A stretch of DNA of 59,436 nt, filler included, from Jimgerdemannia flammicorona (Eukaryota), in the NCBI GenBank assembly GCA_003990765.1. It is 2 parts of 2 records of this genome, joined end to end, with 100 filler letters (N's around TTAATTAATTAA, not from the genome) between each part and the next. Parts side by side here need not be neighbours in the genome. Positions count along the whole stretch, not along the records: positions 1 to 29,669 come from RBNJ01000478.1; 1 more part is not named here. One strand, 5' to 3'. The notes under the pieces are model-generated. The model had not been told where the DNA came from and searched no databases. It saw only the letters and a program-made list of their open reading frames with translations. The position numbers were made by a program, and so were the translations under genes. Of this stretch, positions 3,747-42,946 are shown piece by piece (position 1 is the stretch's first letter; each line of letters starts with the position of its first letter).

Positions 3747-4554
3747 TGTAACGTGCCGGCTCAATAGAGGCAAATTAAAAGGTGGGGCAGCTGTGTGAAT
3801 TGGCTTGAGCCCCCAGTTACTTTGTCAAAAAGTAACAAAATTTTCAATGGTTTGTCTCAGATGGATCTTAGAATTATCACAAATAGGCAGGGTTCTATCC
3901 TTAGAACTTGATAGCAAATCTTCAGCCTTTTCTGGCAAAGTTCTTCACTTGAACTTGGCAGCAATCTTCTTTATATCAGAAAGCCAACTGGAGTTGAATC
4001 AGGCATTAAAGCTCACAATCTCCTTAACAGTGACTTTAGAGTAGGTGTTTCTCCTAAATATTGCAATTCTTTCTGGATCAAGTGGCTTTTGGCAGACATA
4101 TCCCTCAAAGTATATTAGGCAGACTTGTTTTTACTTTTAACTTAGATTTTTAACTGAGGTTTATTCACTTGAATCTTAGAGATATTTTATATAAGTGTGG
4201 TTGCTATCTGATTGCTATCTGAATAATTATAAAATATACAATTAGGCTAATTTAGAGGAGATGTGATCATTTGCTTCTTTAGAAAATAGATGTTCTCTCA
4301 GAGAACAGATCTTCTCTCAGTAGACAAGTGTTCCTCAAGAAATAGATTTAGTATATCTGATTATTTATATCAATTGGTAGCATATATAGATAATTAAGTA
4401 GAGTAATTATACTAAGTGTTCTTTATATATATATTATCTGATTATATTATAGTATTTACTTATTATATTAGTCTCTACTAAAGAGCAGTCTGTCCTAGAC
4501 TGTTCTTTAGTCATTATTCTAATATCTATAGATATCTTCTATATTTATATCTAT
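3747..4554. mobile_element. Old LTR-like sequence that hosts element A; outer left edge of the transposon nest
   Basis: Starts with TGTAAC where CpG content collapses. ~3930-4450 is similar to ~13930-14345 (e.g. ctcacaatctcct...actttagagt; gatattttatataagt..gttgctatctg). Confidence 0.5.
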
Positions 4555-6111
4555 TGTCACATAGTGGTCGCTGAGTCCTTCAAATATGCCAGATTCTCTT
4601 CAAGGTATATCTCTTAGACTAACTCAAGTTTGTTATAAGCAAGTTCTTATTGGAGTGTCTTCCCAAGGTCTTATAGTCCTCAAACTTCTTATCTTTAAAC
4701 TGTCTTGTTATGTCTTAGATTGCTTGCAAGGAAGTGTATAAGTGAACCAGATAGAACTGACTTTATTTCAGAGAAAATAAGAGGGGTATTTATACAAAAT
4801 ATAATTCAATGGTTGCTAAGATATAAAGCTAAATATAAATTCCAATAACTAAAACTACTAAGTTCTAGGGTTGGCACTGATGGTTGTACAGATTCAGGAT
4901 GTTAGTATAATTCAGTGTCACATCAGAATACCAGTGCTGGAATAATTTCATGTCACCTCAGAATGCTGGTGCTGACATTATTCAGTATTCCATCAAAATA
5001 CTAGTGCTGGCATTATTCAGTATAACAAAGAACTTAGAGCAGAAAGTTCAAGACCATGGGAGCTTCATCCTCATCATCACTAAAGGAGATGAGATCCACA
5101 AATTCATTGTCATGCAAGTTGTATGTCTCGTATATGTCATGCATTTTACATACTTCAATGTCATGTGGGATGATGTCATCACCAATGACATCATCACGTT
5201 TGGCAGTAGGGAAATTGGAGGCTCTCTAATCTATGAGGTTCTCTTCCATAAAATAAAAGACAAATGTGGAGTCTTGGGGAGGTCTAACCTGGATGCTTGG
5301 GTCTTGGAATACTGAGATCAATCCTTGCAGGAATTGGTCTGGGTTGTCCTGAAGGATGGGGTGCCAGAAGTCTTCTACTTCATCACTATTGAGGGTAATA
5401 GTGGACTGGGCTTCTGTAGCCACTCTGGCTTCTAGTGCATTGATATGGCAGGATGACAGGTCTCTGAAATCTGAGACTCTAACATATGTACTCCAAGTTG
5501 GAGATCAACCATGGTGCATGCCTGAAGATCTGATAGATCTTCTTAGCTATCCTTGTTTCATGTATATCCATGGGAGTGGCATCTTATAGCTCTTGAGTAC
5601 TGGCCTGTGGGAACTCCTGGCAGAGAAGGTTTCCTATTTTGTACTCCTGCTATATTTGGAGGCATTTGGTGGTAATGGTGATCCTTGTTTCCATTTCACA
5701 GTGGTAGAGGATAAAGTGATAGAGATCTGCAGTACCCAGGTTGACACTAGGAGTCCTTCTCAAGCAGATCCTCATGGCTCTTCTGATGTCTTGGAACATC
5801 CTTTCCTCAACTGAGATATCTTGGTAGTTCCTTGACCTTGAGATTTGGTGGGCAGCAGGCATTTCGTTTATAGTAAGTCTTTGAGCTATTTTGAGATTAG
5901 TGGGTCTTGTTGGTTGCTGCTACTATAGTTCCTTGATCCTTCTTTTATATTCCTCAAGATGCTTGTGCTGTGGTCACAATGACTTATAGTTGGTCATCAT
6001 TGCTCATTGCTCATCTCATATACTGTATGATCTCCTTGTGCTCTGATCTGGTAGCTTGTGGGGAAAGGCTATCTCCTGTGCTGATGTCATCATTCTAAGG
6101 TCACTATTACA
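4555..6111 (-). repeat. 3' LTR of element A
   Basis: Minus-strand ends TGTAATAG...GTGACA, colinear with 11790-13344. TATA-like TATAAATA at 4787-4794 and AATAAA at 4762-4767 on the minus strand. Confidence 0.93.
5034..5862 (-). pseudogene. LTR-embedded ORF of family A, copy 1 (~275 codons, disrupted)
   Basis: MPAAHQISRSRN...RRTPSVNLGTAD...LISNLEY...FWHPILQDNPDQFLQ...EAPMVLNFLL*. Contains a few stop codons and a private 4-nt insertion near 5485. Confidence 0.75.
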
Positions 6112-6121
6112 TCTTCCTCCT
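6112..6121 (-). other. Polypurine tract of element A
   Basis: Minus strand AGGAGGAAGA immediately before the TG of the 3' LTR. The same sequence occurs at 27224-27233. Confidence 0.8.
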
Positions 6122-6466
6122 GAATAAGGATCTTCTTGAGCATCCTTATTCATTGGTCCAGTCCTGAAAAATTTGCTGATCCCATAATCTCTGACAAGGG
6201 GTTGAAAAGTGGTATTTATGGACTGGCATCTTCTCTTTATATTTTGGCATAATGATGAAGGGTTACTCCCTTCATATAGAGCAAGGGCCTGATTCTGATC
6301 TTGACCAATCAGTTGATGGTTCGAACTCCTCTGACTTCGAAAGTCTTATGGATGAGTAGTTGTCAGTGCTGTATCCCTTAGAGAATGGTTCAGACAGATA
6401 GCCTGCTAGTCACAAGACATGCTGTTACAATTCATGGACTAGAACCTCATGGGCAGTCATCATGTT

Positions 6467-9400
6467 TTACTTCTCTGGTATAGGTTTGTGGTACTTCTTG
6501 AGTCTGTTTCTGTATACTGTGGTAGGCAGTATGGTTCCTGAGATTTTTCTAAGCCAGAAGGTAGTTCCCTTGATATCTTGCACATAGAAGGGTCCTTCCC
6601 ATTTGGGCTCCAGTTTTCATGACCATGAGACTTCTACCATATTTTGATATAGTAGAACCTTTTCTCCAATTTCATTAGGTTCTAGGGCCTTGTGATTCTT
6701 TTCTGCATTCTTTCTTATCAGTACTTATGACTTGGTGATGTAATCTTCAGCCTTCTTCCTAATTTGGTATAGTCTCTGGATTTCTGCATCAACCCATCTC
6801 CAAGTTAGGTCTAGATTTGTAGCTGAGGTTCCATCAGAATCTTCTTCTCTGAAGAGCAGCTCTCTTGGGGTAAAGTGTGTGCTCTGTGACCATATGTCTT
6901 ATAGGACAGAGAGAGTGGTTGGGAGATAGTTATCCCAATTCTCATATATCTCTGAGATTTTTGCTAGTATATGTATTCTTGAGGGTCTTGTTGGTTCTCT
7001 CTGTCTGTCCATTTCTTGAGAGTGGTACACAGTGGTCTTGATGTACTGGATCTTGTATTTCTGATACATTATCTTATAGAATCTATTGATAAATTCTATG
7101 CCACAGTCTGTTGTGATTTGCTTCAGTGTCTTGTAGTGGCAGATGATTTCTCAGTGCAGGAAGTCAGCTATAGAGAGGGCATTGGCCTCTTGTAATGCTC
7201 CTGCCTCTATCCATTTGGTGAAGAGGTCTACAATAATTATAATATAGCAGATTCCTGATAGTGTTACTGGTAGTGGTCCAATGATATCTATTGCAATGTG
7301 GTGGAAGGAGATAGGCTCAATTATTGATGACCTGGGTGCCTGGTCTTGCTGATCTTGTTTCTGTTTTTGGTACTTGTCACACCCTTTGACAAATTGGTAT
7401 AGGTCTTCTTCCATCTTGGGCCACCATATGGTTCTTCTTGCTTTATCATATGTGTTGGTTCCTCCTAAGTATCCTTGCTCATATACTTCCTTTATTACTT
7501 GATACTTCTTATGTTCAGGTATTACTAGCTTTTCTCCTTTTCTGAGTGTAGTGTTGTCTAGTTCAAACTATTTTCAAGTCCGGTTGATGATAGTGATTGT
7601 CCAGGGTTCGAGATGGTTGAGCATCTTCCACTGCCCAAGGTAGCTGATTAATCCATAGTATAGCTCCTTATTCATGTTGAATGGTCTTGATGGGGGTGTT
7701 TTGGAGTGTCCTTGAGAGTGTATCGGCATTAGTATTGGTCTTTTCTGAGCAGTGCTTGACAGTACAGTCATACTCTTGCAGCCTGTAGATCTATCTGGCA
7801 TATATTCCTTTAGAGTTCAGAGTGTGGAATAGCCAGGCAAGAGCAGAGTGGTCTGTTTGAATGGTGAAGTATTTCCCAGCTAGGTAGTAGTGGAACTTGT
7901 CTACTGCCCAAACTACTGCTAAGCATTCGAGCTTATATGACTCATAGTTCTGTTCTGCTCCATGGGTACCTCAGCTTGCATAGGAGATAACATATTCATG
8001 TCCATCTTTCTTCTGAGCTAGGACTGCTCTAAGTTCTATAGCACTCACATCTGTCTGCAGGATGAATTCTAGGTTCCAATCTGGTCTTCTGAGGATAGGT
8101 GCTTGGGTCAACCTAGTCTTGAGTTCATTGAAGGTTTCTTGGCACTCTTTGGTCCATTCAAATTTGGTTTCCTTCTTCAGTAGCTCATAGATAGGTGCTG
8201 TAATGTTGGAATATCCTTTGATGAATCTTCTGTAGTAGCTGGCCAGTCTAAGGAAGACATAGACTTCTGTGGTTGTTCTGGGTCTTGGGTAGGCTACAAC
8301 AGCCTCAATCTTCATGGAGTCTGTGTGGATTCTAGTCTGGTTGATGAGGTGTCCTAGATAGGTAATTTCTTGAGCTGCAAACTTGCATTTCTTGGGCTTG
8401 ATGTAGAGGCCATGCTCCTTGAGCTTCTTGAGGGCTAGTTGTATGTGATTGATATATTCCCATACAGTATTGCTGAAGATGATCATATCATCAACATAGA
8501 TAAAGAGCCATTTTCCAATCTCATTGCTAAAGACTCTGTTCATTATTTGCTGGAAACTTGCTAGAGCATTGCACATTTCAAATGGCATTTGCAGGTAGAT
8601 ATGGGTGGTATCAGGTGTAATGAAGGCTGATTTCTTACTGGTATCTTGAGTGAGACCAATCTGATGGAAGCCTGAGAACAGATCCAAGATAGTATAGTAT
8701 TTGGCTTTGCTTCTAAGGGTGGTAAGGATTTCTTGAATATTTGGCAAGGGCTACCTATCCTTCTTGATGATGGTATTGAGCTTTCTATAGTCAATGCAGA
8801 GTCTTGGTGCAAACTCTCCAGGTTTGCTTCCTTTCTTCAGAGCAAGGACAATGGGTGAGGCCCAGGGGCTGATAGCTTGCTTGATGATTCCAGCTTCTTC
8901 CATTTCCTTGAGTTCTGCTCGCAGCCATTCTCTGTAGGCAGGTGGTATAGGTCTGGCTTTCTGGTAGATGGGCTTGGTATCACCAGTGTCAACTTCATAA
9001 TAGTACTTAGGTTCTTGATTGTAGATATCTCTGAAGTCTGTAGCAAGTACTTCTTCATTCTGATACAGGATCTTGAGAAGTTGTTCCTCCAGGGGAAAGT
9101 TTTCTCCAATGGTATATGTGTGCTTGTTCTGGTCCTTGTCTTTCTTGTGCTCAAGTTCAGTAATCTTGGTGGTAGCATAGGCTCCTCTTCCAGTAGATCC
9201 AAAGCCTTGTTCTCCTCTCTTGGTCTTGATGAGTTTGATGGCTTCTATGATCTTGGGCTTCTTGATTTCATGGATCAGTATCTGGCCAATCCTGTCATGC
9301 TTCTTGACTTCAAATGGGGTGGTGGGGTTGTGATTCCTGACTATGAGGAAGATCTCACTAGTGTAATCGGGGTCAATTACTCCTCCTTCAACTGAGATTT

Positions 9401-11669
9401 TGCTTTTGGCCAGACTGCTCCTGGTCTTGATAATTCCAGCATGGTTCTCTGGCAACTTGCCTCCAATTCCAGTGCCAAGTAGGGTGGTGGTCTGTGGTTC
9501 GAGGGTAGCATCTTGAATACTGGCAAGGTCTATTCCTATGACTCCTTCAGTCTTGTATTCTGGGATCTTGGCTTTGGGGTGGAACTTCTTGACCTTGAGG
9601 GTGATGTCTGATTCTTGTTCCTTCTCATCGTCACTGTCAGCTTAAAGCTCCGGGGGCTGGTCATCTTCTTCAGCTTTCCTTTTTACTTCAGCAGCTTCTT
9701 GCTTGTGTTTCTGTTGGTAGATTTTCCTGACTTCACTGATACAGGACCAGTAGTCATTCAGGTGTTCAGAGCAGTATATCCTAGTACTATGGAGGCATCT
9801 TCTCTGAGGGGCATAGCCATCAATGATCTTGTTGTACCACTGCTTATCTGTGAGCTTGGGTGTCTTGTTCTTGTTCTTGTTCACTGAGTGCATAAAGACC
9901 TCTGTGTCCTCTTCATCTCCTTCCTCCATGTCTGGTAGAACTCCTTTGTGGACATTGATAGAGACTCATACCTTTCTTCCTCTGTAGTTGATCTGCATCT
10001 TCTGGGCATTGAGATCAATGATGGCCTTGGCCTTGTGAAGCCATTGGTTGCCAATGAGGATGTCCTAGTTGGTGGTGCTTGTGACAATCACATCTACTGG
10101 GATGGTAGCTCCTCCTATCTTAATGGGGACTTCTCAGATTTTACCAAAGAGGGTAGCTCGTGTATCATCTGCTGTGACATAGACCATCTTGATGGACTCT
10201 TCAATGTCCCAGCCTAGGTAGTCAATTGCCTTCTTGCTCATGAGGCATCTTCCAGCACCAGTATCAATGATGGCATCAAAGATACAGTCTTCAATCTGAC
10301 ATGGGGTATAGGCTGATGTCTTGCACTGGTCTTTGGATTCTTCACCTGAGTTCTCAGATTCTTTCTGTGCATTGTGAGCTTCTACAATCTTGTACTCTTA
10401 ATTCTTGGTGGTAGTTGCAAGTCCTACTCTCAACTGCTGTCTAAAGGCAGGAACTTCAGCTAGTTGTCCAAAAGTGGCATTGACCTTCTGTTCCTTGAGA
10501 TCCTTATAGATATTGTACTGGTGGATCTTGATCTTGTGCAGCTTCTGTTCCTTCTTGCTTTCACTTTCTCCTGAGACTGGAGTAGTGCCTTCAATGATTT
10601 GGCAGGCAGCTTCATCTAACTCCATATCTTGATCAATCTCCTTGGGTTGGGTCTTGCTTTGAATAGTAACAGCTAGGGTCTTCTTTGGTCTTCCAACTGG
10701 CTTGCTGTTGCTCTTCTTGTCATAGAGCTTGGACTGGGTTCTGGTACCTTCAGTAGCAGGGTAGAATTTGAGCTTCTCATAGTATTCTTCATCATCAGTA
10801 TTACCAATCTCCTCGATGACTACTGTATTGGTTTTTTCTCTGGTTCTGCTAGCATTGCTTGGTTGGGCTTTGTGTCTTGTTTCAGTCATGCAATTCTTTG
10901 CGTAGTGGCCTTCTTCTCCACATCTAAAGCATGTGATATTGCATTCTTCTATAGCAGCTGCAAATCTCTGCACTGGTCTCCTGTTGGTGCTTCAGACTTC
11001 TCTAACAACATCACCAAGGTGTGTAGTCATCTTGGCGAACTGCTTGGTGAGTTCCTCCACTGGATCAGCTTTGGCTGTCTTGGGGGTAGGTGGGGTTGGT
11101 TATCTGTTTACAACTGTAGCAGGTATAATACTAGTTGGCTTTGATGGCTCCATCTTGATGCCAGTTATTTTCTCCATTGAATGTTTAGCAGGGTGTCTCG
11201 CAGTCCAATATCTCTGTACAAAGACCACTTTCTGATCAAGGGTCAGTGCAGCTGGGATAAACTGGATTGCTAGGGCAATTTCAGGGTGAACTCCTTTGAG
11301 GAAGGTTGAATCTGCTATTTGTTCCTTGAGGTGGTCATCATAGCCAGCCAAGACAATCTAGTAGCAGATTTGAGTATAGAATGAGTTGGGATCTTCACTA
11401 AGTCCCTGGCAGATAGTATTGAGTTAATTCTTGAGAGTTTGCTTGATCTCTTCAATATAATATGTTGTTCTGAGAAAGGCCTTCATGTTGGCAAGTTTGG
11501 CTGCACTAGCATCAGCAATGGTAGCTGCATTGAACTTGTCTCTGGCAGATCCTCTGAGGCTGACTGGTAGAAGGGCTCATATGGTAGAAAATTGTTCAAA
11601 GTCTTCAATGAAGATCAGGATTGACTCTTCAGTAGTATATCCATAGAATGTGGGGGGACACATTTCCAT
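6467..11669 (-). pseudogene. gag-pol polyprotein of element A (multiple stops)
   Basis: Zinc knuckle CFRCGEEGHYAKNC; protease FDAIIDTGAG (~10250-10280); RT SPWASPIVL, LCIDYRKLN, LDLFSGFHQI, IYVDDMII; RNase H LQTDVS; integrase IAIDIIGPLP, IVDLFTKW, KLEPKWEGPF. No chromodomain before the stop at 6467. Confidence 0.93.
9190..9606 (-). other. dUTPase domain within pol of element A (between PR and RT)
   Basis: LKVKKFHPKAKIP...GIDL...GTGI...RSSLAK...GGVIDPDY...DRIGQ...RGEQGFGSTG, giving all five trimeric dUTPase motifs. Confidence 0.92.
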
Positions 11670-11768
11670 CTTATCTTGAATTCTTGCAGGAATGACTCTT
11701 GTAGTCAGGGTAGTTATTGTGGAGATTATTCATTTTTCAGCTTAAAAGTGAGGGATTTGTCTTGAATC

Positions 11769-11786
11769 ACCAGCCAATGGGCACCA
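11769..11786 (-). other. Putative primer-binding site of element A
   Basis: Minus strand reads LTR end ...GACA, a 3-nt spacer ACT, then TGGTGCCCATTGGCTGGT. The cognate tRNA cannot be identified by eye. Confidence 0.65.
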
Positions 11787-11789
11787 AGT

Positions 11790-13344
11790 TGTCATATAGT
11801 GGTTACTGAGTCCTTCAAATATACTAGATTCTCTTCAAGATATGTATATCTCTTAGACTAACTCAAGTTTGTTATAAGCAAGTTCTTATTGGAGTGCCTT
11901 CCTAAGGTCTTATAGTCCTCAAACTTCTTATCTTTAAACTGTCTTGTTATCTCTTAGTTGCTTGCAAGGAAGTGTATAAGTAAACCAGATAGAACTGACT
12001 TTATTTCAGAGGAAATAAGAGAGATATTTATACAAAATATAATTTAATAGTTGCTAAGATATAAAGCTAAATATAAATTCCAATAACTAAAACTACTAAG
12101 TTCTAGGGTTGGCACTGATAGTTATATAGGTTCAGGATGTTGGTATAATTTAATATCACATCAGAATACCAGTGCTAGAACAATTTTGTATCACCTCAGA
12201 ATACTGGTGCTGGCATTATCTAGTGTTATATCAAAATACCAGTGCTGGCATTATTCAGTATAACAAAGAACTTAGAGCAGAAAGTTCAGGACCATAGGGG
12301 CTTCATCCTTATCATTACTGAAGGAGATGAGATCTGCGAATTCATCGTCATACAGGTCACACATCTCACATATGTCATACATTTCGCATGCTTCGATGTT
12401 ATGCAGGATGATGTCATCACTGATGATGTCATCACATTCAGTGGCAGAGAAATCAGGGGCTCTCCAATCTATGAGGTTCTTTTCTACAAAATAAGGAACA
12501 AATGTGGAGTCTTGGGGAGATCTAATCTGAATGCTTGGGCCTTAGAATACTGAGATCAATTCTTGCAGGAATTGGTCTGGGTTGTCCTGAAGGATGGAGT
12601 GCCAGATGTCTTCTACTTCATCACTATTGAGGGTGATAGTAGACTGGGCTTCTGTAGCTACCCTGGCTTCTAGTGTATTGATATGGTGGGATGACAGGTC
12701 TCTGATATCTGAGACTCTAACATACTCCAAGTTGGGGATTAACCATATGCATGCCTGAAGATCTGATGGATCTTCTTAGCTGTCCTTGTTTTGCATATAT
12801 CTATGGGAGTGATATCTTGTAGCTCTTGAGTACTGGCCTGTGGGAACTTCTGGCAGAGGAGGTTTCTTATTTTGTACATCTGCCATATTTGGAGGCATTT
12901 GGTAGCAATGGTGATCCTTGTTTCCATTTCATAGCAGTAGAGGATAAAGTGATAGGAATCTGCAGTACCCAGGTTGATACTAGGAGTTCTTCTTGAGCAG
13001 GTCCTCATGGCTCTTCTGATGTCTTAGAACATCCTTTCCTTGACTGAGATGCCTTGGTGGTTCCTTGACCTTGAGGTTTGGCAGGCAGTAGGCATTTTAT
13101 TTATAGTAAGTCTTTGAGCTATTTTGAGATTAGTGGGTCTTAATGGTTGCTACTACTGTGGTTCCTTGATTCTTCTTTTATATTCCTCAAGATGCTTGTA
13201 CTGTGGTCACAATGACTCATAGTTAGTCATCATTGCTCATCACTCATCTCATATGCTGTATGATCTTCTTGTGCTCTGATCTGGTGGCTTGTGGGGAAAG
13301 ACTGTCTCCTGTGCTGATGTCATCATTCTGAGGTCACTGTTATA
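11790..13344 (-). repeat. 5' LTR of element A
   Basis: Colinear with 4555-6111, with terminal bases altered by transitions; followed by the PBS on the minus strand. Confidence 0.93.
12272..13095 (-). pseudogene. LTR-embedded ORF of family A, copy 2
   Basis: ORF-track pieces 12739-13008 and 12542-12730 join across a private 1-nt deletion near 12746. The frame continues ...DWRAPDFSATECDDIISDDIILHNIEACEMYDICEMCDLYDDEFADLISFSNDKDEAPMVLNFLL*. Confidence 0.75.
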
Positions 13345-14629
13345 CTATACTATCATTATCTTCTATATTAGAGTTACTCTATTCTAGAGATTTTTCTTCT
13401 TTTTCAGAAAATAGAACTTCAATATAGCTGATGATATTTAGATAAATGGCCAGGTTTATTCTTTATATATCATTTAGAGAGAACTGAATCTATATCAGTT
13501 CTGTGATATTTTGTTTATAGATTATATAAAATCTGTTTATAGTAGTAGTATTCTTTCTTATCAAACTAGTAATATTTTCAATATAGATCTACTCTGAGGC
13601 TGAAAGATCTTATAGCTGTTTACTAATAATATATATAACTCAGATAATATAGATTTTTCAAAAATTGGCAGACTTCTTAAATAATAATAACTTAGATAGT
13701 ATAGATTCTTTCTGAATTAGCTGATTTCTGACTTTGTCTGATAAGTATACTAAAATATAGCAGATTTTGCAAAATTATATCAAAGATTGCTTTATTTGTA
13801 TAAAGTTATATCAAGAGACTAGCTTTACTATAAAGTTGTATCTTATGCTAGACTGGCTTTGTATTGAAAATACAGACAAACTTCTTTTAAAATAGTAGTT
13901 TCTTTCTAAGTAGTAGGTTTCTCTTCAAATAATAGTAAAGTTCTTTACTTAAACTTTGACAATAAATCTTAAGCTTTGTATTAGAAAGTGAACTAAAGTG
14001 AAAAGAAAACTCACAATCTCCTAGTAGTAACTTTAGAGTGAATATTTCTCTTAAAGTATAGTATATAGACTTATCTTTTACTTTTGAACTTTTTGGACTA
14101 AGATTTATTCACTCTTGTCTCAAGGATATTTTATATAAGTTAGTTGCTATCTGGTTATTATGAAGCTAACTAAAGAATGGCTAAATATAGTGTATGACTT
14201 CTTCTATACTCTCAGAATATAGTATCTTCAGAGTATAGTTATTTTCAATCTGACTATTTATACTATTTATATAATTTCTATAGCAACTAGATAACTATAT
14301 AGGTAACTATAGTACTAAGTATTCATATCATCTGATTATATTACATTGTTCATATATTATACTATATAGTAGTTCCAATCTTGTAATTTATCTCTATTGA
14401 GTCAGTATGTTATATTTGGAAGCTCAACTGAGGAGATTTTCTTTAAATCTATATGACTTTTCAGCTCACAAGAACTTAATAGCTAAATGGATATATTTGA
14501 TATATATATATAATATTAATTTATACCACTATAGGAGAATAAGTCATTATTAGTATTTGGATAAAAAGAAAAATAACTACCTCAAAACTTACTAATTACT
14601 CAGTATTAGAAGAATCTCAACCAAAAGTC

Positions 14630-15670: not shown

Positions 15671-17920
15671 GTATCTCTATTAATATAAGAACCTAAAAGT
15701 AATACTTGGACTCTACCTTTATAATAGGTAGAAAGAACTTGCTAATAGTAGATATTTGAAACTTAGTACTTTCTCACAGAACTCAGAATTTAGAACTAAT
15801 AGTTATCTTTGATTATCTGCAATATATTAATTCTATTAGCATATAGTTTTATTATAATTTAATAGTAGTAAAAGTTACTCTCATCTATAAGCAATCTTCT
15901 CTCAAGAAGTCTACTATAAATACAGACAACTCAGTCAATATTACTAATATTATCAGTGATAAATAAAGAATACTTTTATCCTAACTACTCTCCAAAACCA
16001 AGCTGAAGAAGCTAATAGAATTATTAGTAAGTAGACTGAAACTCATATCAGTTAAGAAGAATTTGACAAACTTAACAATGAAACTATCTAAGAAGTATTT
16101 GATATATTAATTTTACTCAACAAAGAAGTCACCTATATTCAAAGAGTCAGAAAGAAATTTGAAAGATTAATTAGTAGTCACTTTATAAGAAATATACAAG
16201 AGAATCCATCAAAGCTATATGTGAATATTTTCTAAATTTTCTCTTCAATAATTACTACTAAAAAGTCAAGACCTTTCTCAACTATAAGAGATATTATACT
16301 AACTAAAAAAAATCTCACCTCTACTACTGAGTCCTCTATATATAAGTAAAGATAATCTAATAGTAAGAATTATAAACTATCAGACTCAGTGAAGCCTCTA
16401 CTATATTATTTTAATCTAGAAGAATGGTTGAAAAAATATCTGAATCTGATACTGGTGACCTCAGTACTACTATAAACCTACTATCAAGAATATCAAGTCT
16501 ATATACTAAGAATTACTATAGAAGACCTAGTAATAACTCTATTTAAACTATATATCAACCTATAGACTAGTTACTATATAAGTTCACCCATTTTAGTAAT
16601 ATTATAGAAGAAGTGACTATATATTATACTACTCCTGAGATAACAGTATCTGAAGAAAGACTACCACTATCTTGCTATATAAGTGATAAGAATAGTAGAA
16701 TAATATCAGTAGATAAAAAGATAGCAGTTCTGGCTGACTAAGTGATTATACTTATTCAAGCCTTTTATCTTAGTATCAAAATAAACAAATCTATAAAAGA
16801 ACTCTGACTCACATTATTTGAAGATAAAGCAGACTAAGTAATAATATTTATAAAATAAGTAGACACCAATTATCATACTAATAGATAGAATGATAATTAG
16901 AATTCAGATAGTACTCTTACTAATAATAAGTACTATAAGATTGAAGATCTCTATACAACCACAGACTTGTATGTAGAGAAAGTTACTATCTATTTTACAG
17001 ATATGGCTACTTAGTAGTGGTATAATATATATCTCAGTATACTCTCTTAATTGAGAAACTTATGCTAAAATGATGTAAGTAAGGAAGTTGATGATTGCTC
17101 TGACTATAAAGCCTATCCAGCTACTATAAGTCTAAAGGAGCTGATTATCCAGTAGTTCTGTAGCTCTGTCTATATTACCAAAGTCAGAACTAAGCTCAAG
17201 AACCTCCAATTCTACAATAGTAGAAAAGAAGACTTAGAGACATTTGCAATAAGATTAAAAACTCTTCTGATTACTATATGAGTAAAGTATAGCTAATAAG
17301 AATAGACTGTGAATAGAACCAAAGCAGTATACTTCTTCAATATTATCTCTGAATAGTTATCATAGAAGATCTAAGAGTAAGAATGACTCTACAACTATCT
17401 CTATAAGCAATTATACTTAGGACAAGCTATTACTAGAACATATACTATCCTAATAGCTCAAAGACCAAGTATAACAATTTCACAGTTATATTTAGTCTTA
17501 GTACATTTTTGCATCTTTTAGTTAGTCTTTTCTTAGTACCAAGTATCTTATCTTAGCTAGTTATAAAACCTTTCAGATGTAGAATAGTATTAGTCAGCTT
17601 TGCTGAGAACCTATTTCTTGGCATTTCACTTTCTTTTTAAGATCCTTCTGGATCTTTCTTTCAGATCATATATAAATATTCTTGTTCTCTGCCTGAATAA
17701 AGCTCAGAATATTTTCTCCCAGAAATCCTTCAAGAATACTTGAACCTTTAAGTATCTCTTCAAGCTACTTTAAGCCAACTAGAACTTTCAGATTTAGCTG
17801 CTTCCTCTTAAAGAAACTAGAACCATTACACTTGGTAGCAGTGGTATCATTACACCTTGCCTTATTAAGAAACCTCACACAAATTCAGAAACCAGTCACA
17901 ACTAGTCACATGAATCCAAA

Positions 17921-20900: not shown

Positions 20901-22670
20901 TTTTGAGTTCTACAAGTTGGCCCTGGCTGAACAAAAGCTAGCCACTCATAAGAAGAAACTACTGGCAATAATATATGCACTAGATCACTGGTAACACTAT
21001 CTAGAAGGTATTGAGTTTGATGTCATTACTGATTATTAATCCCTTAAGTATATCAACATCCAATCTACTCTATCATGTCTATAAGCCAAGTAGAGCCTCA
21101 AGCTTCAAACTTTTAATCTGATGATCATCTACAAGCCTGACAAGATACTTATAATACCAGATGCCTTATCAAGATACCCAGATCTCACTACAATTATATA
21201 AGTTACCTTGGCATCAGAATTTCTAGACCAAATCAGACAAGCTTATAAAGAAGACACAGTTGCCACTAGAGTTTTCTTGAATGAGCTCAAGGATATATAT
21301 ACTATTGAGAACAATCTGATCTATTATTAAGAATAAGTCTATCTATCTGAAAATATAAATCTACACTATAAGGTTTTGTAAGAACACTATGACTTCCCTC
21401 TTGCCAGTTATCTGGGAATCAAGAAAACTGTTAAGAACATTCAATACCACTACTATTGGCCAAGCATGATCAAGAAAATCAAGAACTATATTGCTAGCTG
21501 TGATCTATGCTAGTGCAATAAGTCTACCAACTAAGTACCAACTGGGTTGCTATAACCATTACCAATTCCTACCAAGAAATTTGGGCAAGTTACCATGGAC
21601 TTTATAACTCAACTACCACAAACTCAATCTGGTGCTAATGCCATCATCATATTCATTGACTGCCTGACCAAGACTATGATTGCTGAACCAACCACTATCA
21701 ATGTTACTGCATCTGAGATTGCAAGAATCTTCTTCAAGTCCATCTTCCATCACTATGGCCTATCACAAGTAATTGTTAGTGATTGTGATCTGAAATTTAC
21801 CAATTACTTCTGGCAAACTCTCTTCAAGACTCTGGAAACCCAATTGGCTATGTCTACTGTCTTTTATCCACAAACTGATGGACAAATCAAGCATATGAAT
21901 AGAACTCTAGAACAAATACTTAGAAACTATATTTCTTACAAGCAAGATGATTGGGACCACCACCTGACTTATGTAGAGTTTACATACAACAATGCTATCC
22001 AATCATCTACTGGTCTTTCCCCTTTCCAGTTACTTTATGCTCAAGATCCTAAGACCCCTGCAAGTCTATTCTCTTTTAAAAAAACCAGTCAAATATAAGT
22101 CCCAACTGCCAAGAACCTTACAGACAAAATGGATGAACTACTCAAGATTGCTACTGTGAATCTTCAGAAGGCTCAACAGCATCAAGCCAAGTATGCTGAT
22201 AAGAAATACCATGTATCACTTATACTGTTAGAGATCAAGTTCTATTGTCTACTAAGAACCTCAAGATACAATCTCAAGTCAACTGCCCTTTAAACAAGTT
22301 CCAATCTAAGTATATTGGATCTTTCAAGATTACTAAATAAGTCTCTGTATCCTCCTATCACCTCAAGCTATCTGAAATCATGAGAGTATATCCAGTCTTT
22401 TATATATCACACCTCAAGACCTGGAACCAGTCACCACCCTACTCTGGTTAAATTTCTAAGCCTTTCACCCTTGTGATTATTGAAGACTATATTGAGTATG
22501 AAGCTGAGAAAATTCTTAACAAATAAATCTACTATCACTATTCTGAATATCTAATCAAGTGGGTGGGTTACTCTAAATATGATACTACCAGGGAACTACT
22601 AGTCAACCTCAAGAACTCTTAAGATCTAGTTCAAGACTTTGAAGTAAAATATATTACCCAATTCCTATAG
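17921..22670 (+). pseudogene. gag-pol of element B: gag, CCHC, dUTPase, PR, RT, RH, IN, chromodomain
   Basis: Zinc knuckle YFFCYQTGHIATKC; protease VLLDSRA; RT KSPYGSPILF, FTKLDL, LVYLDDILI; integrase MDFITQLP, YPQTDGQ; chromodomain EYEAEKIL...EYLIKWVGY (~22490-22645). Confidence 0.92.
18899..19309 (+). other. dUTPase domain of element B (between nucleocapsid and protease)
   Basis: LKVKKLHPK...DLDL...VPTGIAVQCPEGHYARIA...TGVIDPDFQGQVQVLLIN...KEGD*VMQ...TE*DQKDFNST, the last being an eroded RGxxGFGSTG. Confidence 0.88.
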
Positions 22671-25620
22671 TGACTTACTTGGATTATTGATGACTTATAT
22701 CAATGACTAGTACCTTATATATTGGAAGTTTACTTTGGGACCCTGAAACTAGCAGAACATTTAATAAATAAGAAGTCCACTGAAATGAAGCTACTAGCTA
22801 GGTTTGAACTCCTCTCAGTTGGTTAGTCTAGTAATAGGCCCTCTGCTCTATATGAGGATGGCCAATTCTCACCAATATACTGATACAAGTTTGAGAAATT
22901 TTGGTTAAGTATATCTAGCCTTGTGTTACCTAAGAACTCAATAAGAATATTAGTTCTTAAGAAGAGAGAGATGTAATAATTTCTGGTCTTAGTATATTTT
23001 CATATCTTTTAGTTAGTCTTTTCTTGTTATTTCTTAAATATTCTACTATGTTCCATTATCTTCAACTTGCTTAGAAATCTTCTCTTGGTGCCCAGATATT
23101 ACTAGAACATTTCTGTCTTTCCTTGATACTAAGTATCTTATCTTAGCTAGTTATAGAACCTTTTGGAACATTGTAGAATAATATTAGTTAGCTTTACTGA
23201 GAACCTATTTCTTAGCATTTCTCTTTCTTTCTAAGATCCTTCTGGATCTTTCTTTTAGATTATATATAAATATCCTTGTTCTCTGCCTGAATAAAGCTCA
23301 GAATATTTTCTCTCAGAAATCCTTCAAAAATACTTGAACCTTTAAGTATCTCTTCAAGTTACTTTAAGCCAACTAGAACTTCCAGATTTAGCTGCTTTCT
23401 CTTAAAGAAAATAGAACTATTATATTAAGAGACAATAGAAATAATAACAAAGAAGACAAGTAATATCAATTAAAAAAGAGATATAAATCTTAGAATAACT
23501 CTCTGAAATTATAAAGAGAATATAAGAAACTATTTAATAAGAAATTTGGAGAACTCAGGGAGAAGAAAGTATGTTTCCACTATAAGAAAACTAGATATAT
23601 ATCTTGTAAATACTCTGATAAGAAGATCAATATGAATAAGAGATTATCTTCCTTATATACTATTATTATAATAAGAGATGACTCCAAAGGAATCTCTGAA
23701 AAAATCAAGATCAAGAGATTCTATATCACTATAAAAATTTCAGACAAAGTACACAAATCTGATACTGGCTACAATCTCTACTTAAGCATAGAAATAACCA
23801 TCAAACCAGACAAGTAAGTAACTATCAGTATAGGTGTCAGAATGAAAGACTCTGCATAGCTGGAGGAGTTGTAGACCAAGAATTCAAAAATTAAATTAAG
23901 GTCCTGCTATACAATATTAGACAGAAGTCAGTTAAAATCATATGTAAAAAATTAATCACCCAGACTATTATTAAGATAATATACAATAATCTCTAAGTAG
24001 AAGAAACAAATGAACTATCACTCTCTAATAGAGGAGAAGGACTTTTAAATCAACAGAAAAGCACTCTGTTAAGACCAAGGCATAGAAGATTATTTATATT
24101 GAAGAATCTCAAAACTGAGATTAGAAATAATATATACTAATATATTATAGACAGATGTATCTCAGCTGGATAATATCTCTACCAAATTAAGATATAATAT
24201 TTTAAGCATATAAGTGAATATATTATATGTAATCTTAAATCTAAGAAATATAAGTTAACTATTTCTAAATGATTGGATAAAGAAATTAAGAAAATTAATA
24301 ATAAAGATAGAGAAATATAAGATTGAAAACAAGAGCCTACCTCAGAAATAATTGTCATCTGGTAAGGTAATTCTAAATTTATCTGCCTATAAGAAAAAAT
24401 TAAAGAAAATTCTGTTAAAGTCCTTATCAACAGTAGAGCAAGTAAGTGCTATCTTGAAAAGAAAACTACTAATAAATTTAACCTTAAGGTACAAAGAAAC
24501 CCATAAGGAAATATTACTATATTTGATAATAAAATAACTCAGAAACTCTCTAAAATCTACAAGAATACACTTCTATAACTAGGAGACTATACTACAAAAC
24601 AGACCTTTCATATTATATATTTTCTATAATATAACCTTATCTTTAGAAAATCCTGACTCATATAAGAGAATTTTCACATTAACTGGTAAATCAATATAAT
24701 CTCTCTAGGATATATTAAGCTATAGTCAGAATAGACCAAGAAGGAAGTGAAATCCAAGTATGGTATTATCTCTATCATTTAAATAAAGAAGCTAATTTGA
24801 AAACCAAAATAGTATATCTATATATATTCAAGGAATATTCAGCAGAGAATAATAATAATAATAATCTTTCTAAACTATTGAAGCATAAAGATGAAGAAAA
24901 AGAAAGCCTCTAAGAACTACTCAAGGACTATAAAGATGTTTTTCAAGAACCCCAAGAACTATTATCTATCTGAGTAGTAAAATATAGCATTAAAACTACT
25001 TTAGAAGCAGATCCTTCCTACTGTGAAATCTATTAACTAGTTCAGTCTGAGCTGGAAACTCTCAAGGAATAGCTAGCAGATCTGTCAAATAAATATCTCA
25101 TATATCTATCAAAATTACCATATAGTATAATAATTCTTTTTATTTATAAAAAGAATAGAAGTCTTCATATATATATATATTAATTACTAAGTACTCAATA
25201 AGATATCTGTTAAGAACTAATATATATATATTTCTATGAATCAATAAACTACTTAACTAAGTATATAATGCTAAGATCTTTTACTTATTGATCTTATATC
25301 TAAATATTATCAAATTTATATCAAGAAAAAAGATATCCTAAAGACCATATTTTAAATAAGATTTCAATGCTATAAATTCTGTATAATGTCATTCAGTCTC
25401 ACTAATACTCTGACAATCTTTGAGATACTAATGAATAATATATATATTCCAGAGATATCTTAGAGTATTTGTTCTAATATTTCTAGATAATATTCTAGTA
25501 TATAGTATAAGCAGTACTATCTATCAATAATACCTGTAAATAGTCTTTAACATACTATATAAAAACAAGCTCTCAGTAAAAGAGAAGAAATATTATTTCT
25601 TTTAGAAGAAAATTAGATAT

Positions 25621-28600
25621 TACTATATAGTGATCACTGAGTCCTTCAAATATGTCAGATTCTCTTCAAGATATATCTCTTAGACTAACCACAAGTTTGT
25701 TATAAGTAAGTTCTTATTGAAGTGTCTTCTCAAGGTCTTATAGTCCTCAAACTTCTTATCTTTAAACTGTCTTATTATCTCTTAGATTGTTTGTGTAGAA
25801 TTGAGTATAAGTAAACTGGAACTGACTTTATTTCAAAGGAAATAAGAGAGGTATTTATACAAAATATAATTCAATAGTTGCTAAGTTATAAAGCTAAATA
25901 TAAATTTCAATAACCAAATAAAATACTAGAACACAGAAAACTATAGTTGTAAATATAAGTTCAAGTATCTGTATAAATGATTGTATAAGTTCAGGATGCC
26001 AGTAGAATTTTGGTGGTACAGAAAAAGGATACCAGAAGAATTTCTGAGTTATACCAGATCAGAATATCAGAAGAATAACAGTTACAGAGAAAAAGAATGC
26101 TGGTAGAATTCAGTATTATCAAGAACTTAGAGCAGAATGTTCAGGACCATAGGGGCTTCACCTTCATTACTATCATCAAGGCCAGAGGTTGGAGATAGGA
26201 TGTCTTCAAAGAAGATAAGGTTTATGAACATTTTGTCTATTTCACATATATCATATGTTTTGCATACTTTATGCATATCATATAGGATAACATCATCACT
26301 AATAATATGTATCATTACATTCAGTAGTAGGGGCTCTCCAATTTATGACATTTTCTTCTACAAAATAAGAAACAAATGTAGATTTGTGGAGAGATCTAAC
26401 CTGGATACTGGGGCCTTAGAATACTGATATCAATTCTTGCATGAATTGATTTGGATTGTCCTGGAGGATGGAATACCAGAAGTTCTCTACTTTATTACTA
26501 TTGAGAGTGATAGTAGACTGAGCCTCTGTGGCCACCATAGCCTCCAGTATATTGGTACAGTGAGCTGACAGTTCTTTGAAGTCTGAGATCCTAGTATACT
26601 CCAAGTTGGAGATCAATCATAGTGCATGCTAGAAGACCTGATGAATCTTCTTTACTGTCTTTATTTCATATATATCTATGGGAGTAGTATCTTAAATCTC
26701 CTGGAGACTGGCCTGAGGGAATTTCCAGCAGAGAAGGTTTTCTATTTCATACTTCTGCCACATTCAGAGATATTCAGTAGCAATGGTGATCCTTGTTTCC
26801 ATTTTATAATAGTAGAGAATATAATGATAAAAGTTACCAGTACTCAGGTTGAGGCTAGGAGTTCTTCTTGTGTGAGTTCCCATGGCTCTCCTGATGTCTT
26901 GGAATATCTTATTCTGGACTGAGGGGTCTTAGTGGTTCTTGGACCTTGAGGTTTGATGAGCAGTATGCATTTTATTTATAGTAAGTCTTTAGAACTATTT
27001 CTGTGAGCTTTGTTTGGATTGCTACTACTGCAGTTTCTTGATTCTTCTTTTATATTCCTCAAGATATCTGTCTTGTAGTCACAATGACTCATAGTTGGTT
27101 ATCATTGTTCATCTTGTAGCCCAGATGAGTTATACCATATAATCTTCTTATGCTTTGATCTGGTGGCTTGTAAGGAAAGACTGTCTTCTGTACTGATGTC
27201 ATCATTCTGAGGTCACTATTACATCTTCCTCCTGAATAAGGATCTTCTCTTGAATATCCTTATTCATTGGTCCAGTTTTGAAAAATTTGTTAATCTCATA
27301 ATCTCTGGCAGAGAGTTGAAAAGTAGTGTTTATGGGCTGATATCTTCCTTATATATTTTGGCATGATGGTGAAGGGTTGTTCCCTTTATATAGAGTAAGA
27401 ACCTGATTCTGATCTTGATTAATCAGTTGACAGTTCAAACTTCTCTGGCTTCAAAAGTCTCATAGATGAGTAGTTGCTGATACTATATCTCTTAGAGAAT
27501 AGTCCAGACAGATTGCCTACTGATTATGAGATATACTGTTATGATTCATGGACTAGAACCTCATGGGTAGTCATTATATTTTGCTTCTCTTGTATAGATT
27601 CATGGTACTTCTTGAGTCTATTCTTATGTACCATAGTAGGTAGTATAGTTCCTGAAGATTTTCTAAGCCAGAAGGTAGTTCCTTTAATATCTTATACATA
27701 GAAGAGTCTTTCCCATTTGGGCTCCAGTTTTTGTAATCATGAGGCTTCTACCATATTTTGATATAGTAGGACCTTTTCTCTGATTTGAATGGGTTCTAGG
27801 GTCTTGTAATTCTTTTTTGCATTCTTTCTTATTAGTGCTTATGACTTGATGATATAATCTTCAGCCTTCTTTTTGATTTGATATAGTCTCTGGATTTCTG
27901 AGTCAATCTATCTCTATGTTAGATCTAGATTTGTTGCTGAGGTTTCATTGGAATTTTCTTCTCTGAAGAGCAGTTCTCTTGGGATAAAGTGTATACTCTA
28001 TGACCATATATCTCATAGGATAGAGAGAATAGTTGGGAGGTAGTTATCCCAATTGTCATATGTGTCTGAGATCTTTGCTAGGATGTTCTTGAGGGTCTTG
28101 TTGGTTCTTTCTGTCTGTCTATTTTCTTGAGAGTGGTATGCAGTAGTCTTGATATGCTGAATCTTATATTTCTGATACATTATCTCATGGAATCTATTGA
28201 CAAATTCTGTGCTGTGGTCTGTGGTGATTTGCTTTGGTACCTTGTAGTAACAGATGATTTCTTGGTATAAAAAGTCAGCTATAGAGAGAGCATTGGCTTC
28301 TTATAATGCTCCTGCTTCTATCTATTTGGTAAAGAGATCTATAATAACTATAATGTAGCAGTTTCCTGATAGTATCACTGGTAGTGGTCCAATAATATCT
28401 ATTGCAATATGATGGAAGAGGATAGGCTCAATTATTGATGGTCTGGATATCTGGTCTTGCTGATCTTATTTCTGTTTTTGGCACTTATCACACTCTTTGA
28501 CAAATTGGCACAGGTCTTCTTCCATCTTAGACCACTATATAGTTTTTCTTACTTTGTTATATATGTTGATTTCTCCTAGGTATCCTTATTCATGTACTTC

Positions 28601-42105: not shown

Positions 42106-42946
42106 ATGGCTCCTGGGAACATGACCGCGTACGAGTTGGCCGCCCATGAATGGGCATGTGCGCATAAACCCTTCCGCAGAGGGTTTGATATTGTTACCAA
42201 GGTATGTACGGCGAAGTTCTGATGCGGGACGTATTATTTATCAGACAAGCTATATCAATAATCCACGAATGTAAATGCTCCTGGCTTCAGAATGCTAGCA
42301 TAGTGACGGTGGACAAGCTCCCTAATTTTTTGGGATATTGTCACGCTTTGATGGAGGTAAGCTGATATTATCAACCAAACAATATTGCGATTCAAGAATA
42401 TTCTCTGGATTATAATTTACATAATACACTACCTTTCAACTTCCAAAATCGGAACGACCAACTTTAGTCTCTTGACGGTCATCACCACATCGAAGACGAT
42501 GTCGTCTTTCCGTTCTTCGCCACAAAGCTGGACATTTCCGCCTGGGAATCCGACCACGTTGAACTCACCAAACGCATTAACGAGATCAACGCAATTATTG
42601 CCGGCTATACCTCCGATCCGACGACTTACGACGCGTCGGCTTTCGAAGCGCTTTTCGTATCTTTGAAGGATATGGTCATTCCGCATCTTGATGCTGAAGA
42701 AAACACGGTAACAGCGAAGTTCATGGAGGAGAATTACGATGCAGAGAAAGTGGCCCAGCTTATTCCCGATATCGTGGAGTATAATAAGAAGCATGAGGAC
42801 CCAGTGGTGGTTCTGGTATTCTTAATTATGCATACGGCTCCCGAGGATAGGCCGTGACCAAAGCTACCTTGGCTCTTGAGTAAGATTATTATGCCATATT
42901 TTATATATCCGAAGCATAAGAGGTACGTTGGCTTTATGCTATTTTC

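Follow-up and report, generated by a model that had tools for sequence, protein, structure and literature searches.

The window, by which we mean the whole stretch of DNA that was analysed (59,436 nucleotides of Jimgerdemannia flammicorona, assembly GCA_003990765.1, two parts joined by filler), contains a transposon island with one LTR retrotransposon (element 1) and an LTR of a second, diverged element joined to pol sequence. Inside the LTRs of both elements lies an open reading frame (ORF), now decayed in every copy. The features, in positions of the window, are as follows.

4551..4554, no strand: target-site duplication ATAG on the 3' side of element 1, matching 13345-13348
4555..6111, minus: 3' LTR of element 1, 1557 nt, ends TGTAAT...GTGACA (self-blastn and alignment)
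4762..4767, minus: AATAAA, putative poly(A) signal, about 25 nt past the TATA box, near LTR position 1345
4787..4794, minus: TATAAATA, LTR positions 1318-1325, ending U3; presumed promoter of the genomic RNA
5034..5862, minus: ORF copy 1 at LTR positions 250-1078, a pseudogene with three in-frame stops and a frameshift of +4 nt
5942..5949, minus: TATAAAAG box in U3, 86 nt upstream from the ATG of the ORF, a candidate promoter for a subgenomic mRNA
6112..6121, minus: polypurine tract AGGAGGAAGA, adjoining the 3' LTR on its 5' side, upstream of the ORF
6122..11789, minus: internal region of element 1, gag to integrase, every domain decayed (Pfam)
7151-7567, minus: integrase zinc domain (Pfam Integrase_H2C2)
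7971-8750, minus: RT and RNase H (Pfam RVT_1, RT_RNaseH_2)
8751-9641, minus: dUTPase (PF00692, E=2.1e-26), between PR and RT
10134-10397, minus: aspartic protease, PR (Pfam Asp_protease_2)
10398-10991, minus: gag with CCHC knuckle (Pfam zf-CCHC)
11774..11786, minus: PBS-like TGGTGCCCATTGG, putatively the PBS, 3 nt past the 5' LTR
11790..13344, minus: 5' LTR of element 1, 1555 nt (self-blastn and alignment)
12272..13095, minus: ORF copy 2, a pseudogene with two in-frame stops and a -1 nt frameshift
13175-13182, minus: TATAAAAG box of the 5' LTR
13345..13348, no strand: target-site duplication ATAG on the 5' side, 4 bp
25621..27223, minus: copy-3 LTR, 1603 nt, from the second, diverged element; pol sequence adjoins it up to about 29660
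26127..26970, minus: ORF copy 3, a pseudogene with six stops in the alignable part and the frame of the acidic tail lost
27047-27054, minus: TATAAAAG box of copy 3

Element 1 has direct LTRs, TG..CA ends, a short target-site duplication and the order gag(CCHC)-PR-RT-RNase H-IN, which place it in the Ty3/gypsy group (Metaviridae), and with a dUTPase inside pol, PR on one side and RT on the other, it belongs among the dUTPase-bearing Gypsy elements. In the heavily decayed region searched for a chromodomain (6344-6900 and 27230-28002, read through in three frames), Pfam gave no match. The sister LTRs are 89.1% identical over 1563 aligned nt (self-blastn match at 11789-13342), and the initial bases of the 5' LTR, TATAAC, are a mutated TGTAAT. 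The second element matches element 1 at 83.4% (26332-29660 against 5220-8540, self-blastn); the two are about 20% diverged at the nucleotide level and have the same ORF-in-LTR arrangement. The polypurine tract AGGAGGAAGA also stands before the copy-3 LTR in the alignment, and this tract, the TG..CA ends and the 4-bp target duplication together fix the LTR boundaries. A sequence-only reading of this DNA had given 5034-5862, 12272-13095 and 26127-26970 as the bounds of three LTRs; these intervals are correct for the ORF, while the LTRs themselves measure 1555-1603 nt. No solo LTR lies within the window.

An intron of about 90 nt was also seen, and CpG loss in the window is confined to transposable-element sequence. 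The host is probably a soil fungus; hints of a fungus are these two features and the PR-dUTPase-RT order, which has been reported from basidiomycete elements. Outside the transposon island, 99 of the 110 ORFs of at least 80 aa were scanned with Pfam and gave no fungus-specific family, the 11 left out of that scan being those that overlap ALDH or methyltransferase genes.

At all three places the ORF runs from M(P/H)xA(H/C)Q to EAPMVLN(F/I)LL* on the minus strand, which is also the gag-pol strand (5862->5034, 13095->12272 and 26970->26127). That the three copies carry the same frame had been proposed before, and when eight family proteins were compared with the window by tblastn they matched these three places only, which bears it out; copy 1 is 79-81% identical to the relative P0004, and copy 3 is 70.6% identical to P0005 over residues 1-214 (tblastn). 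The ORF takes up 53% of the 1.56-kb LTR and begins 249 nt past the LTR's initial base. Since it lies upstream of the TATAAATA/AATAAA pair it falls within U3, an assignment based on motif positions, and since the polypurine tract is upstream of it in turn, it is part of the LTR itself. Being wholly inside the LTR it is doubled whenever the LTR is, and 3/3 window LTR copies contain it: both LTRs of element 1 and the LTR of the second element. We rejected the ORF as a C-terminal extension of pol, with five stops between the two in copy 1. The ORF shares its frame with the stop-to-stop frame 6016-6345, and at least CATTGTGAC and AGTAG, both between the pol frame and the ORF, are invariant in all three copies (alignment).

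All three copies in the window have been inactivated by transition hypermutation, which also stripped the entire transposon island of CpG. When the copies are aligned with their frames corrected (274 codons), every in-frame stop (11/11) aligns with Q, W or R of the intact homologue P0005, and 9/11 are one transition away from a sense codon of another window copy, much as the sequence-only reading had described. The stop at codon 93 is common to copies 1 and 3 and that at codon 185 to copies 2 and 3; since both codons are Q in the intact relatives, these are parallel hits and not ancestral. Frameshifts in the central segment are private, as had also been noted, with 4 extra bases in copy 1 and one base fewer in copy 2 (alignment). 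At 5485, 15 contigs in four public runs (X1, X2, X4 and X6, contigs of DNA or unidentified kind) lack the 4 bases that copy 1 has in excess.

Depth per bin in the runs is higher in parts of the LTR than in gag-pol, but contig depth cannot rank the parts, and joints in the run contigs are few, each of them one single low-depth contig. Polarising the LTR mutations with copy 3 as outgroup was discarded as unreliable, because copy 3 is itself hypermutated.

In the period when the family was active, purifying selection acted on the frame. By the Nei-Gojobori method, which is blind to extreme transition bias, the state common to copies 1 and 2 compared with copy 3 gives a dN/dS of 0.30 for the whole ORF and 0.26 when restricted to codons 1-213, compared with 0.84 for both shifted frames, and the sister LTRs, whose divergence postdates insertion, give 0.78 for codons 1-213 and 0.50 for the whole ORF, the wrong-frame controls covering the between-lineage comparison only. 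Substitutions fall 29/20/45 on the three codon positions, an excess at the third (chi-square p=0.006). A ratio below 1, put forward earlier as a check on the gene, is what the element lineages give, and in its presence in every window LTR copy and its coding-like conservation the ORF resembles the sense aORFs of plant elements. The suggestion of the sequence-only reading, an accessory gene in U3 that is duplicated with the LTR, holds up on its position upstream of the TATA box and poly(A) signal, its presence in both LTRs and its dN/dS of 0.26-0.30. We put the probability at roughly three in four that the ORF is an element-encoded accessory protein gene inside the U3 of a dUTPase-bearing Ty3/gypsy family.

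By sequence comparison, intact relatives of the protein occur in four diverged subfamilies, the LTR location being known from the three window copies. They comprise 15 distinct metagenome proteins (P0004-P0018), 28-80% identical to the reference P0005, and include three full-length proteins of 271, 342 and 325 aa, which answers the earlier question of whether intact copies exist. A window fragment found 5 matches and a profile 12, and in a set of 1.84 billion proteins 5 representatives had E<=0.001. It is a very small family, made up of metagenome gene calls only, from JGI and ENA sources; none has an NCBI or UniRef source, and the sole name given is 'hypothetical protein'. The motifs common to the relatives are an N-terminal MPxxR..QT followed by WxEYEI, AKKxHQxFRH, LQDNPDQ and FxGPxI. 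No fused or longer form was found among 2424 candidates, which is weak evidence, and viral and prokaryote-genome scans gave no DNA encoding homologues. One locus from the metagenome scan (L001, 30% identity over 78 residues) was set aside, its ORFs appearing unrelated and AT-rich.

The protein begins with a basic, Arg-rich N-terminus, continues into a helical core and ends in an acidic tail with bulky hydrophobic residues. The net charge of P0005 is +8 over residues 1-60 and -14 over residues 211-270, and the tails of other subfamilies are acidic too. The sequence-only reading had described a basic N-half and an acidic, Cys-containing tail: the basic stretch is in fact the first ~60 residues and not half of the protein, and the acidity of the tail stands but its Cys do not. 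Intact relatives have 0-5 Cys in total, with R or other residues at the tail Cys positions of the window copies, so that these Cys are products of Arg-codon decay. No transmembrane segment was found in 5/5 family proteins (maximum Kyte-Doolittle 19-residue mean 0.59-1.07), and N-termini in the family are hydrophilic; without a hydrophobic segment the protein is not env-like, as had been judged before.

Pfam gave no family for six window pieces and none for P0005 or P0004 at E<=10, and a PDB sequence search with the family profile returned 0 at E<=10. Two ESM Atlas searches had best scores of 0.83 and 0.87, under the lead threshold. AlphaFold gave poor models (pLDDT 42.7 and 50.9), and the fold search on a low-confidence model was unusable, with a best VIA-align Z of 4.0 and a best Foldseek E of 1.5. 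Pattern matches for NES, SIM, LIR and the clathrin box are not conserved across subfamilies. Origin of the ORF from the element's own gag was rejected, at an hhalign probability of 0.1% against two gag pieces.

As to expression, plus-strand priming at the polypurine tract would copy the gene to both ends of the element at each retrotransposition. The ORF would not be translatable from the 7-kb genomic RNA, so that a subgenomic mRNA would be needed. This mRNA could start at TATAAAAG, a TATA box that lies within a block conserved in 3/3 copies (alignment) and has no ATG between it and the ORF's ATG, and could end at the LTR's own AATAAA; alternatively it might be spliced. The presumed genomic promoter, TATAAATA, is likewise conserved in 3/3 copies.

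For the function of the protein our proposal is tentative, and we would put it below even odds: it would work in the nucleus and influence how its own element is expressed, whether by activating transcription, by exporting RNA or by countering silencing. The remaining probability we infer to be spread over virion-associated or host-directed roles. It is rather unlikely, if conceivable, that the LTR works as a self-contained cassette (TATA box, 271-aa ORF and poly(A)), from which 5', 3' and solo LTRs could make a trans-acting nuclear factor boosting or protecting the expression of the family.

A real accessory protein might instead act in the particle or on RNA, as a Rev/CERV-like exporter of unspliced genomic RNA or as a Gag-packaged nucleic-acid chaperone. 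Its N-terminus RRAMRTRTRR is Arg-rich, which we take to be the type of motif that binds RNA and which speaks for such a role. The acidic hydrophobic tail, however, is the sole compositional feature common to all subfamilies, and tails of this kind are more typical of activation domains. There is a precedent in CERV of the C. elegans element Cer1, as described in PMC10309623; here neither an export-signal nor an RNA-binding domain could be detected, and matches to simple motifs differ among subfamilies. We consider this alternative doubtful.

The remaining alternatives dispute the accessory gene itself. A host-gene fragment could have been captured by the element through transduction and carried without selection; plant LTR retrotransposons are known to capture genes in this way (PMC7264820), and the ORF protein has neither a retroelement-like domain nor any likeness to the element's gag. 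Nevertheless, the dN/dS of 0.26-0.30 against 0.84 in the control frames and the frames that stay open in four subfamilies down to 28% identity argue against a passenger, as does a family whose members have no NCBI or UniRef source, go by no name but 'hypothetical protein' and include none found to be longer or fused. Moreover, conservation extends to the start codon and the N-terminus and so shows a complete gene instead of a fragment, and we regard an unselected host fragment as very improbable. An ancient capture followed by selection may have taken place, which is a question of origin and no rival to the accessory gene.

Equally little weight goes to the ORF as the cargo of a small foreign insertion in the ancestral LTR, a nested element that was tolerated and not needed. 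The LTR is unusually long at 1.56 kb, 53% of it ORF, and the stretch from the ORF's stop to the main TATA box aligns poorly across lineages, both of which would suit an insertion; an unsystematic look at the alignment, however, saw no terminal repeats or duplication around the ORF, and the ORF was under purifying selection in the element lineage and kept in 3/3 copies and two diverged lineages. Finally, that there is no gene at all, the long U3 being kept for a cis-regulatory DNA or RNA role and its frame open by chance, is extremely improbable, since despite the stops in every window copy and the complex selection on U3 regions of fungal LTR elements (crapaud; PMC10787394), the third-position excess, the omega of 0.3 in the ORF frame only and the gene-called frames of 271-342 aa, with motifs kept while identity drops to 28-31%, all stand against it.

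If the ORF is an accessory gene, its place in the LTR means that the gene is doubled with every insertion, that its survival in solo LTRs is expected from the anatomy and that transcription separate from gag-pol is possible. LTR retrotransposons seldom have accessory genes, most of which have yet to be characterised, and those described lie in the internal region; our searches of open-access text turned up no account of a selected protein gene in the U3 of a fungal Ty3/gypsy element. Genes in LTRs are hidden by repeat-masked annotation; the gene calls that yielded all 15 relatives were made on unmasked metagenomes. Should the protein regulate element transcription, RNA export or silencing, it would provide a handle on how fungal retrotransposons evade genome defence. 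Accessory genes are what distinguish 'complex' from simple retroviruses, and if the cassette reading were true this would be a 'complex' fungal retrotransposon with an LTR-borne regulator, its logic like that of retroviral Tas/Tax, whose solo LTRs would not be inert.

Sense genes in or overlapping U3 are known from retroviruses, namely MMTV sag (the 'LTR ORF'), lentiviral nef and foamy-virus bel/bet. The ORF here resembles these in lying in U3, with the orientation of gag-pol, downstream of the polypurine tract and in both LTRs, and it would resemble them too in needing a subgenomic mRNA. In contrast, they belong to vertebrate retroviruses with env whereas the element here has none and its host is probably a fungus; no sequence relationship was found, P0005 and P0004 matching no Pfam family at E<=10; and sag is a membrane protein, whereas the ORF protein has no hydrophobic segment. 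Foamy-virus Tas, a nuclear activator with an acidic activation region that is expressed from an internal promoter, offers a working model, with a second promoter inside the element, for which TATAAAAG is the putative candidate here; the foamy-virus promoter lies in env, whereas the candidate here is in U3, and no homology to Tas was found.

Within Ty3/gypsy, CERV of Cer1 is described in PMC10309623 as an accessory protein made from a spliced mRNA that exports genomic RNA. According to the same paper it is, like the protein here, lineage-specific and without homologues outside its clade, but its gene is in the internal region, and by this description it is set apart from an ORF inside the LTR. 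The sense aORFs of plant elements are conserved, family-wide and element-specific, with no known domains and unknown function (PMC7264820; PMC3485330). They occupy the internal region, with pol on one side and the 3' LTR on the other, whereas the ORF here lies past the polypurine tract and is repeated in the 5' LTR; many of them are env-like with transmembrane segments, unlike the ORF protein. Among fungal elements, the additional gene brtn of Boty, a Ty3/gypsy element of Botrytis cinerea (as cited in PMC7264820 and PMC8365987), is antisense and in the internal region according to the former, whereas the ORF here, compared by description, is sense and inside the LTR. The legend of Figure 3 in PMC2864245 marks some fungal elements as having an 'add. 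ORF' whose function is unknown, and the same paper describes PosPlaTy3-5 of Postia placenta, a basidiomycete Gypsy element with a dUTPase between protease and RT, the same PR-dUTPase-RT layout as in element 1.

A transposon island spans ~4.5 to 31 kb of the window. Self-comparison of the window matched 4554-6109 to 11789-13342 (89.1% over 1563 nt) and placed a third, more diverged repeat copy at ~25.6-27.2 kb, which runs on into pol-like sequence to 29660. Between the first two repeats the minus strand carries all the coding capacity, and the following features were read there and at the repeats themselves:

13348-13345 and 4554-4551: ATAG on either flank of element 1, from reading the flanks
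13344 to 11790, minus: 5' LTR of element 1, 1555 nt, ends read
3 nt beyond the end of the 5' LTR (11790), minus: TGGTGCCCATTGG, read from the sequence
10398-10991, minus: gag piece with a CCHC knuckle (Pfam)
10134-10397, minus: aspartic protease (Pfam)
8751-9641, minus: dUTPase (Pfam PF00692, E=2.1e-26), between protease and RT
7971-8750, minus: RT and RNase H (Pfam)
7151-7567, minus: integrase zinc domain (Pfam)
6121-6112, minus: polypurine tract AGGAGGAAGA, directly before the start of the 3' LTR
6111 to 4555, minus: 3' LTR of element 1, 1557 nt, starting TGTAAT and ending GTGACA, ends read
27223 to 25621, minus: copy-3 LTR

Since the Pfam domains are ordered and accompanied by a polypurine tract, LTR ends and ATAG on both sides, the first two repeats with these domains and flanks are a single integrated Ty3/gypsy element with LTRs of 1555 and 1557 nt. 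The intervals that the sequence-only reading took for LTRs (5034-5862, 12272-13095 and 26127-26970) are the coordinates of an open reading frame; this frame does lie inside the LTRs, which are longer. Outside the 4-bp duplication AATATAGAAGATA is present in both flanks (13351-13370 and 4525-4550), and the insertion site seems to be a repeated AT-rich sequence. Elsewhere in the island two direct repeats (17578-17828 and 23172-23422, 94% identical, 5594 nt apart) bracket a plus-strand ORF, 21556-22098, with a weak integrase-core match (PF00665, E=1.3e-4, below Pfam's cut-off), probably representing another, nested LTR element.

In copy-1 LTR coordinates the ORF has its ATG at 250 and its stop at 1076-1078, the LTR ends at 1557, and the ORF makes up 53% of the LTR length. 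An TATAAATA box lies at 1318-1325 and AATAAA at ~1345-1350. If these two motifs serve the genomic RNA as promoter and poly(A) signal, as their position and their conservation in all three copies suggest, U3 would be ~1.35 kb long and the ORF would lie wholly inside it. An enhancer-like 18-nt motif, CCAGCAYYRGYATTYTGA, occurs twice in each element-1 LTR (4923-5010 and 12196-12248, minus strand) downstream of the ORF stop and ahead of the main TATA box, in a region that aligns poorly in copy 3. A 109-codon stop-to-stop frame without a Pfam match (6016-6345, minus) comes from pol, of which it may be the true C-terminus, crosses the polypurine tract, reaches 95 nt into the LTR and shares the reading frame of the ORF; that the ORF is an extension of pol is ruled out because five stops intervene, at least two of them invariant in all copies.

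The ORF is broken in all three window copies, with 3, 2 and 6 in-frame stops in copies 1, 2 and 3 (frame-corrected alignment of 274 codons), a 4-nt gain in copy 1, a 1-nt loss in copy 2 and loss of the tail frame in copy 3. This damage is private, as first proposed for the frameshifts, or parallel: copy 1's four extra bases are absent from 15 contigs across four public runs, the 1-nt loss belongs to copy 2 alone, 9 of the 11 stops are a single transition away from a sense codon of another window copy, and all 11 line up with Q, W or R of an intact relative. Identical CAA>TAA stops recur at codon 93 in copies 1 and 3 (5584-5586 in copy 1; 12817-12819 is the homologous codon of copy 2) and at codon 185 in copies 2 and 3, a pattern that points to hot spots of mutation rather than common descent. 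Three host genes adjoin the island:

31758-32300, minus: class I methyltransferase
36200-37774 (main part 36479-37774), plus: aldehyde dehydrogenase (PF00171, E=3e-175)
42468-42854, plus: hemerythrin-domain protein

The upstream exon of the aldehyde dehydrogenase gene is set off by a GT..AG intron of ~90 nt, which holds a run of 19 A. CpG observed/expected is 0.00-0.12 over the island (~4500-31000) against ~1.1 in these flanking genes, the loss being limited to the transposons. Transitions make up 156 of the 162 sites at which the LTR pair of element 1 differs, C>T mainly within CpA and G>A within TpG, and public contigs aligned to the element differ from the window almost only by transitions. 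The decay is RIP-like or deamination hypermutation, and because the 10% LTR divergence reflects it, that divergence is unusable for dating the insertion.

Between lineages, a comparison of the kind suggested by the sequence-only reading gave a dN/dS of 0.30 (0.26 for codons 1-213) versus 0.84 in both shifted frames (Nei-Gojobori, sites where sister copies 1 and 2 agree, against copy 3), and substitutions by codon position were 29/20/45, a third-position excess (p=0.006). Two LTRs of one element diverge only after insertion; between the sister LTRs of element 1 dN/dS was 0.78 for codons 1-213 and 0.50 over all codons, with no third-position excess.

The external relatives are the decisive evidence for a gene. 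A window fragment with one stop read as X retrieved five proteins (E 4e-64 to 4e-30), a profile search of 1.84 billion representatives five, and a profile word search twelve; combined they gave 15 distinct proteins in four subfamilies, with 74-80%, 47-48%, 42% and 28-31% identity to P0005, an intact member. Three relatives, 271, 342 and 325 residues long, have complete open frames and share an MPxxR..QT N-terminus and motifs such as WxEYEI, AKKxHQxFRH, LQDNPDQ and FxGPxI. Neither a chance frame nor an unselected captured fragment would remain open over such divergence. Together with the between-lineage dN/dS, the 15 relatives support a selected accessory gene in U3, so that the conserved protein gene originally proposed stands, within corrected LTR boundaries. 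Diverged copies of the element are abundant in contigs from soil metagenomes and from two further runs of one organism. With the ~90-nt intron, the CpG loss limited to transposons and the PR-dUTPase-RT order known from a basidiomycete, this makes a soil fungus, perhaps a basidiomycete, the likely host.

The protein matched no Pfam family even at E<=10, its family profile matched no PDB sequence, neither of two Atlas searches yielded a usable look-alike, and we found no longer fused form and no likeness to the element's gag. Structure prediction, a check envisaged from the start, yielded weak AlphaFold models (pLDDT 42.7, then 50.9 with pTM 0.50), both with a helical core (18-31, 47-83, 100-113, 136-149, 173-182), a small beta hairpin and a disordered tail, and fold searches with them returned nothing above background. 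The acidic tail described earlier is borne out (net charge -14 in P0005 residues 211-270, with F, L, I and V interspersed; tails of other subfamilies differ in sequence and are equally acidic), while the basic charge, ascribed to the N-half, was measured in residues 1-60 (+8, including RRAMRTRTRR). Cysteine in that tail is a decay artefact, since positions that are Arg in intact relatives read Cys, His or Tyr in the window copies. The same decay process acts on other family members, because in P0017 and P0014, whose frames are still open, Arg has already given way to Trp, Cys or His (e.g. P0017 against P0015). None of five family proteins tested has a hydrophobic segment or signal-like N-terminus, so the predicted protein is not env-like, as already judged.

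Plus-strand priming at the polypurine tract sets the 5' edge of U3, and because this tract lies upstream of the gene, which is present in both LTRs of the integrated element, each retrotransposition cycle would copy it to both ends and it would persist in solo LTRs. Because the ORF comes last, at the 3' end of a 7-kb RNA in which many ATGs precede it, it would need an mRNA of its own. All three copies conserve a block that holds a TATAAAAG box, 86 nt ahead of the ORF's ATG and with no other ATG between the two; a transcript started at this candidate promoter would run to the AATAAA of the same LTR, and each LTR would then be a complete gene. Alternatively, the mRNA would be spliced from genomic RNA. 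Our hypothesis for function, with a probability of roughly one in three, is a nuclear protein that regulates expression of the element itself, by activating transcription or as an RNA-export/anti-silencing factor, since a basic head, predicted helical core and acidic-hydrophobic tail would fit; within this class we would rank an activator slightly above a Rev/CERV-like factor.

Complex retroviruses characteristically carry genes that lie within U3 or overlap it, and 'LTR ORF' in the open literature nearly always means MMTV sag. Searches of the open full-text literature turned up no fungal Ty3/gypsy element whose LTR bears a protein gene. Gypsy elements reported from the basidiomycete Postia placenta have the same PR-dUTPase-RT order as element 1, and the fungal survey that describes them names an 'add. 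ORF' in a figure, which may bear on the novelty of the LTR-borne gene (PMC2864245). Accessory ORFs of plant LTR retrotransposons have been reviewed (PMC7264820), Retrosat2 ORF0 being one for comparison (PMC3485330). Boty brtn, as cited in that review, is antisense (PMC7264820), whereas the LTR ORF here lies on the gag-pol (minus) strand, and Cer1 CERV is reported to be made by splicing and required for RNA export (PMC10309623). What is new here is the protein family and its position for a retrotransposon accessory gene.
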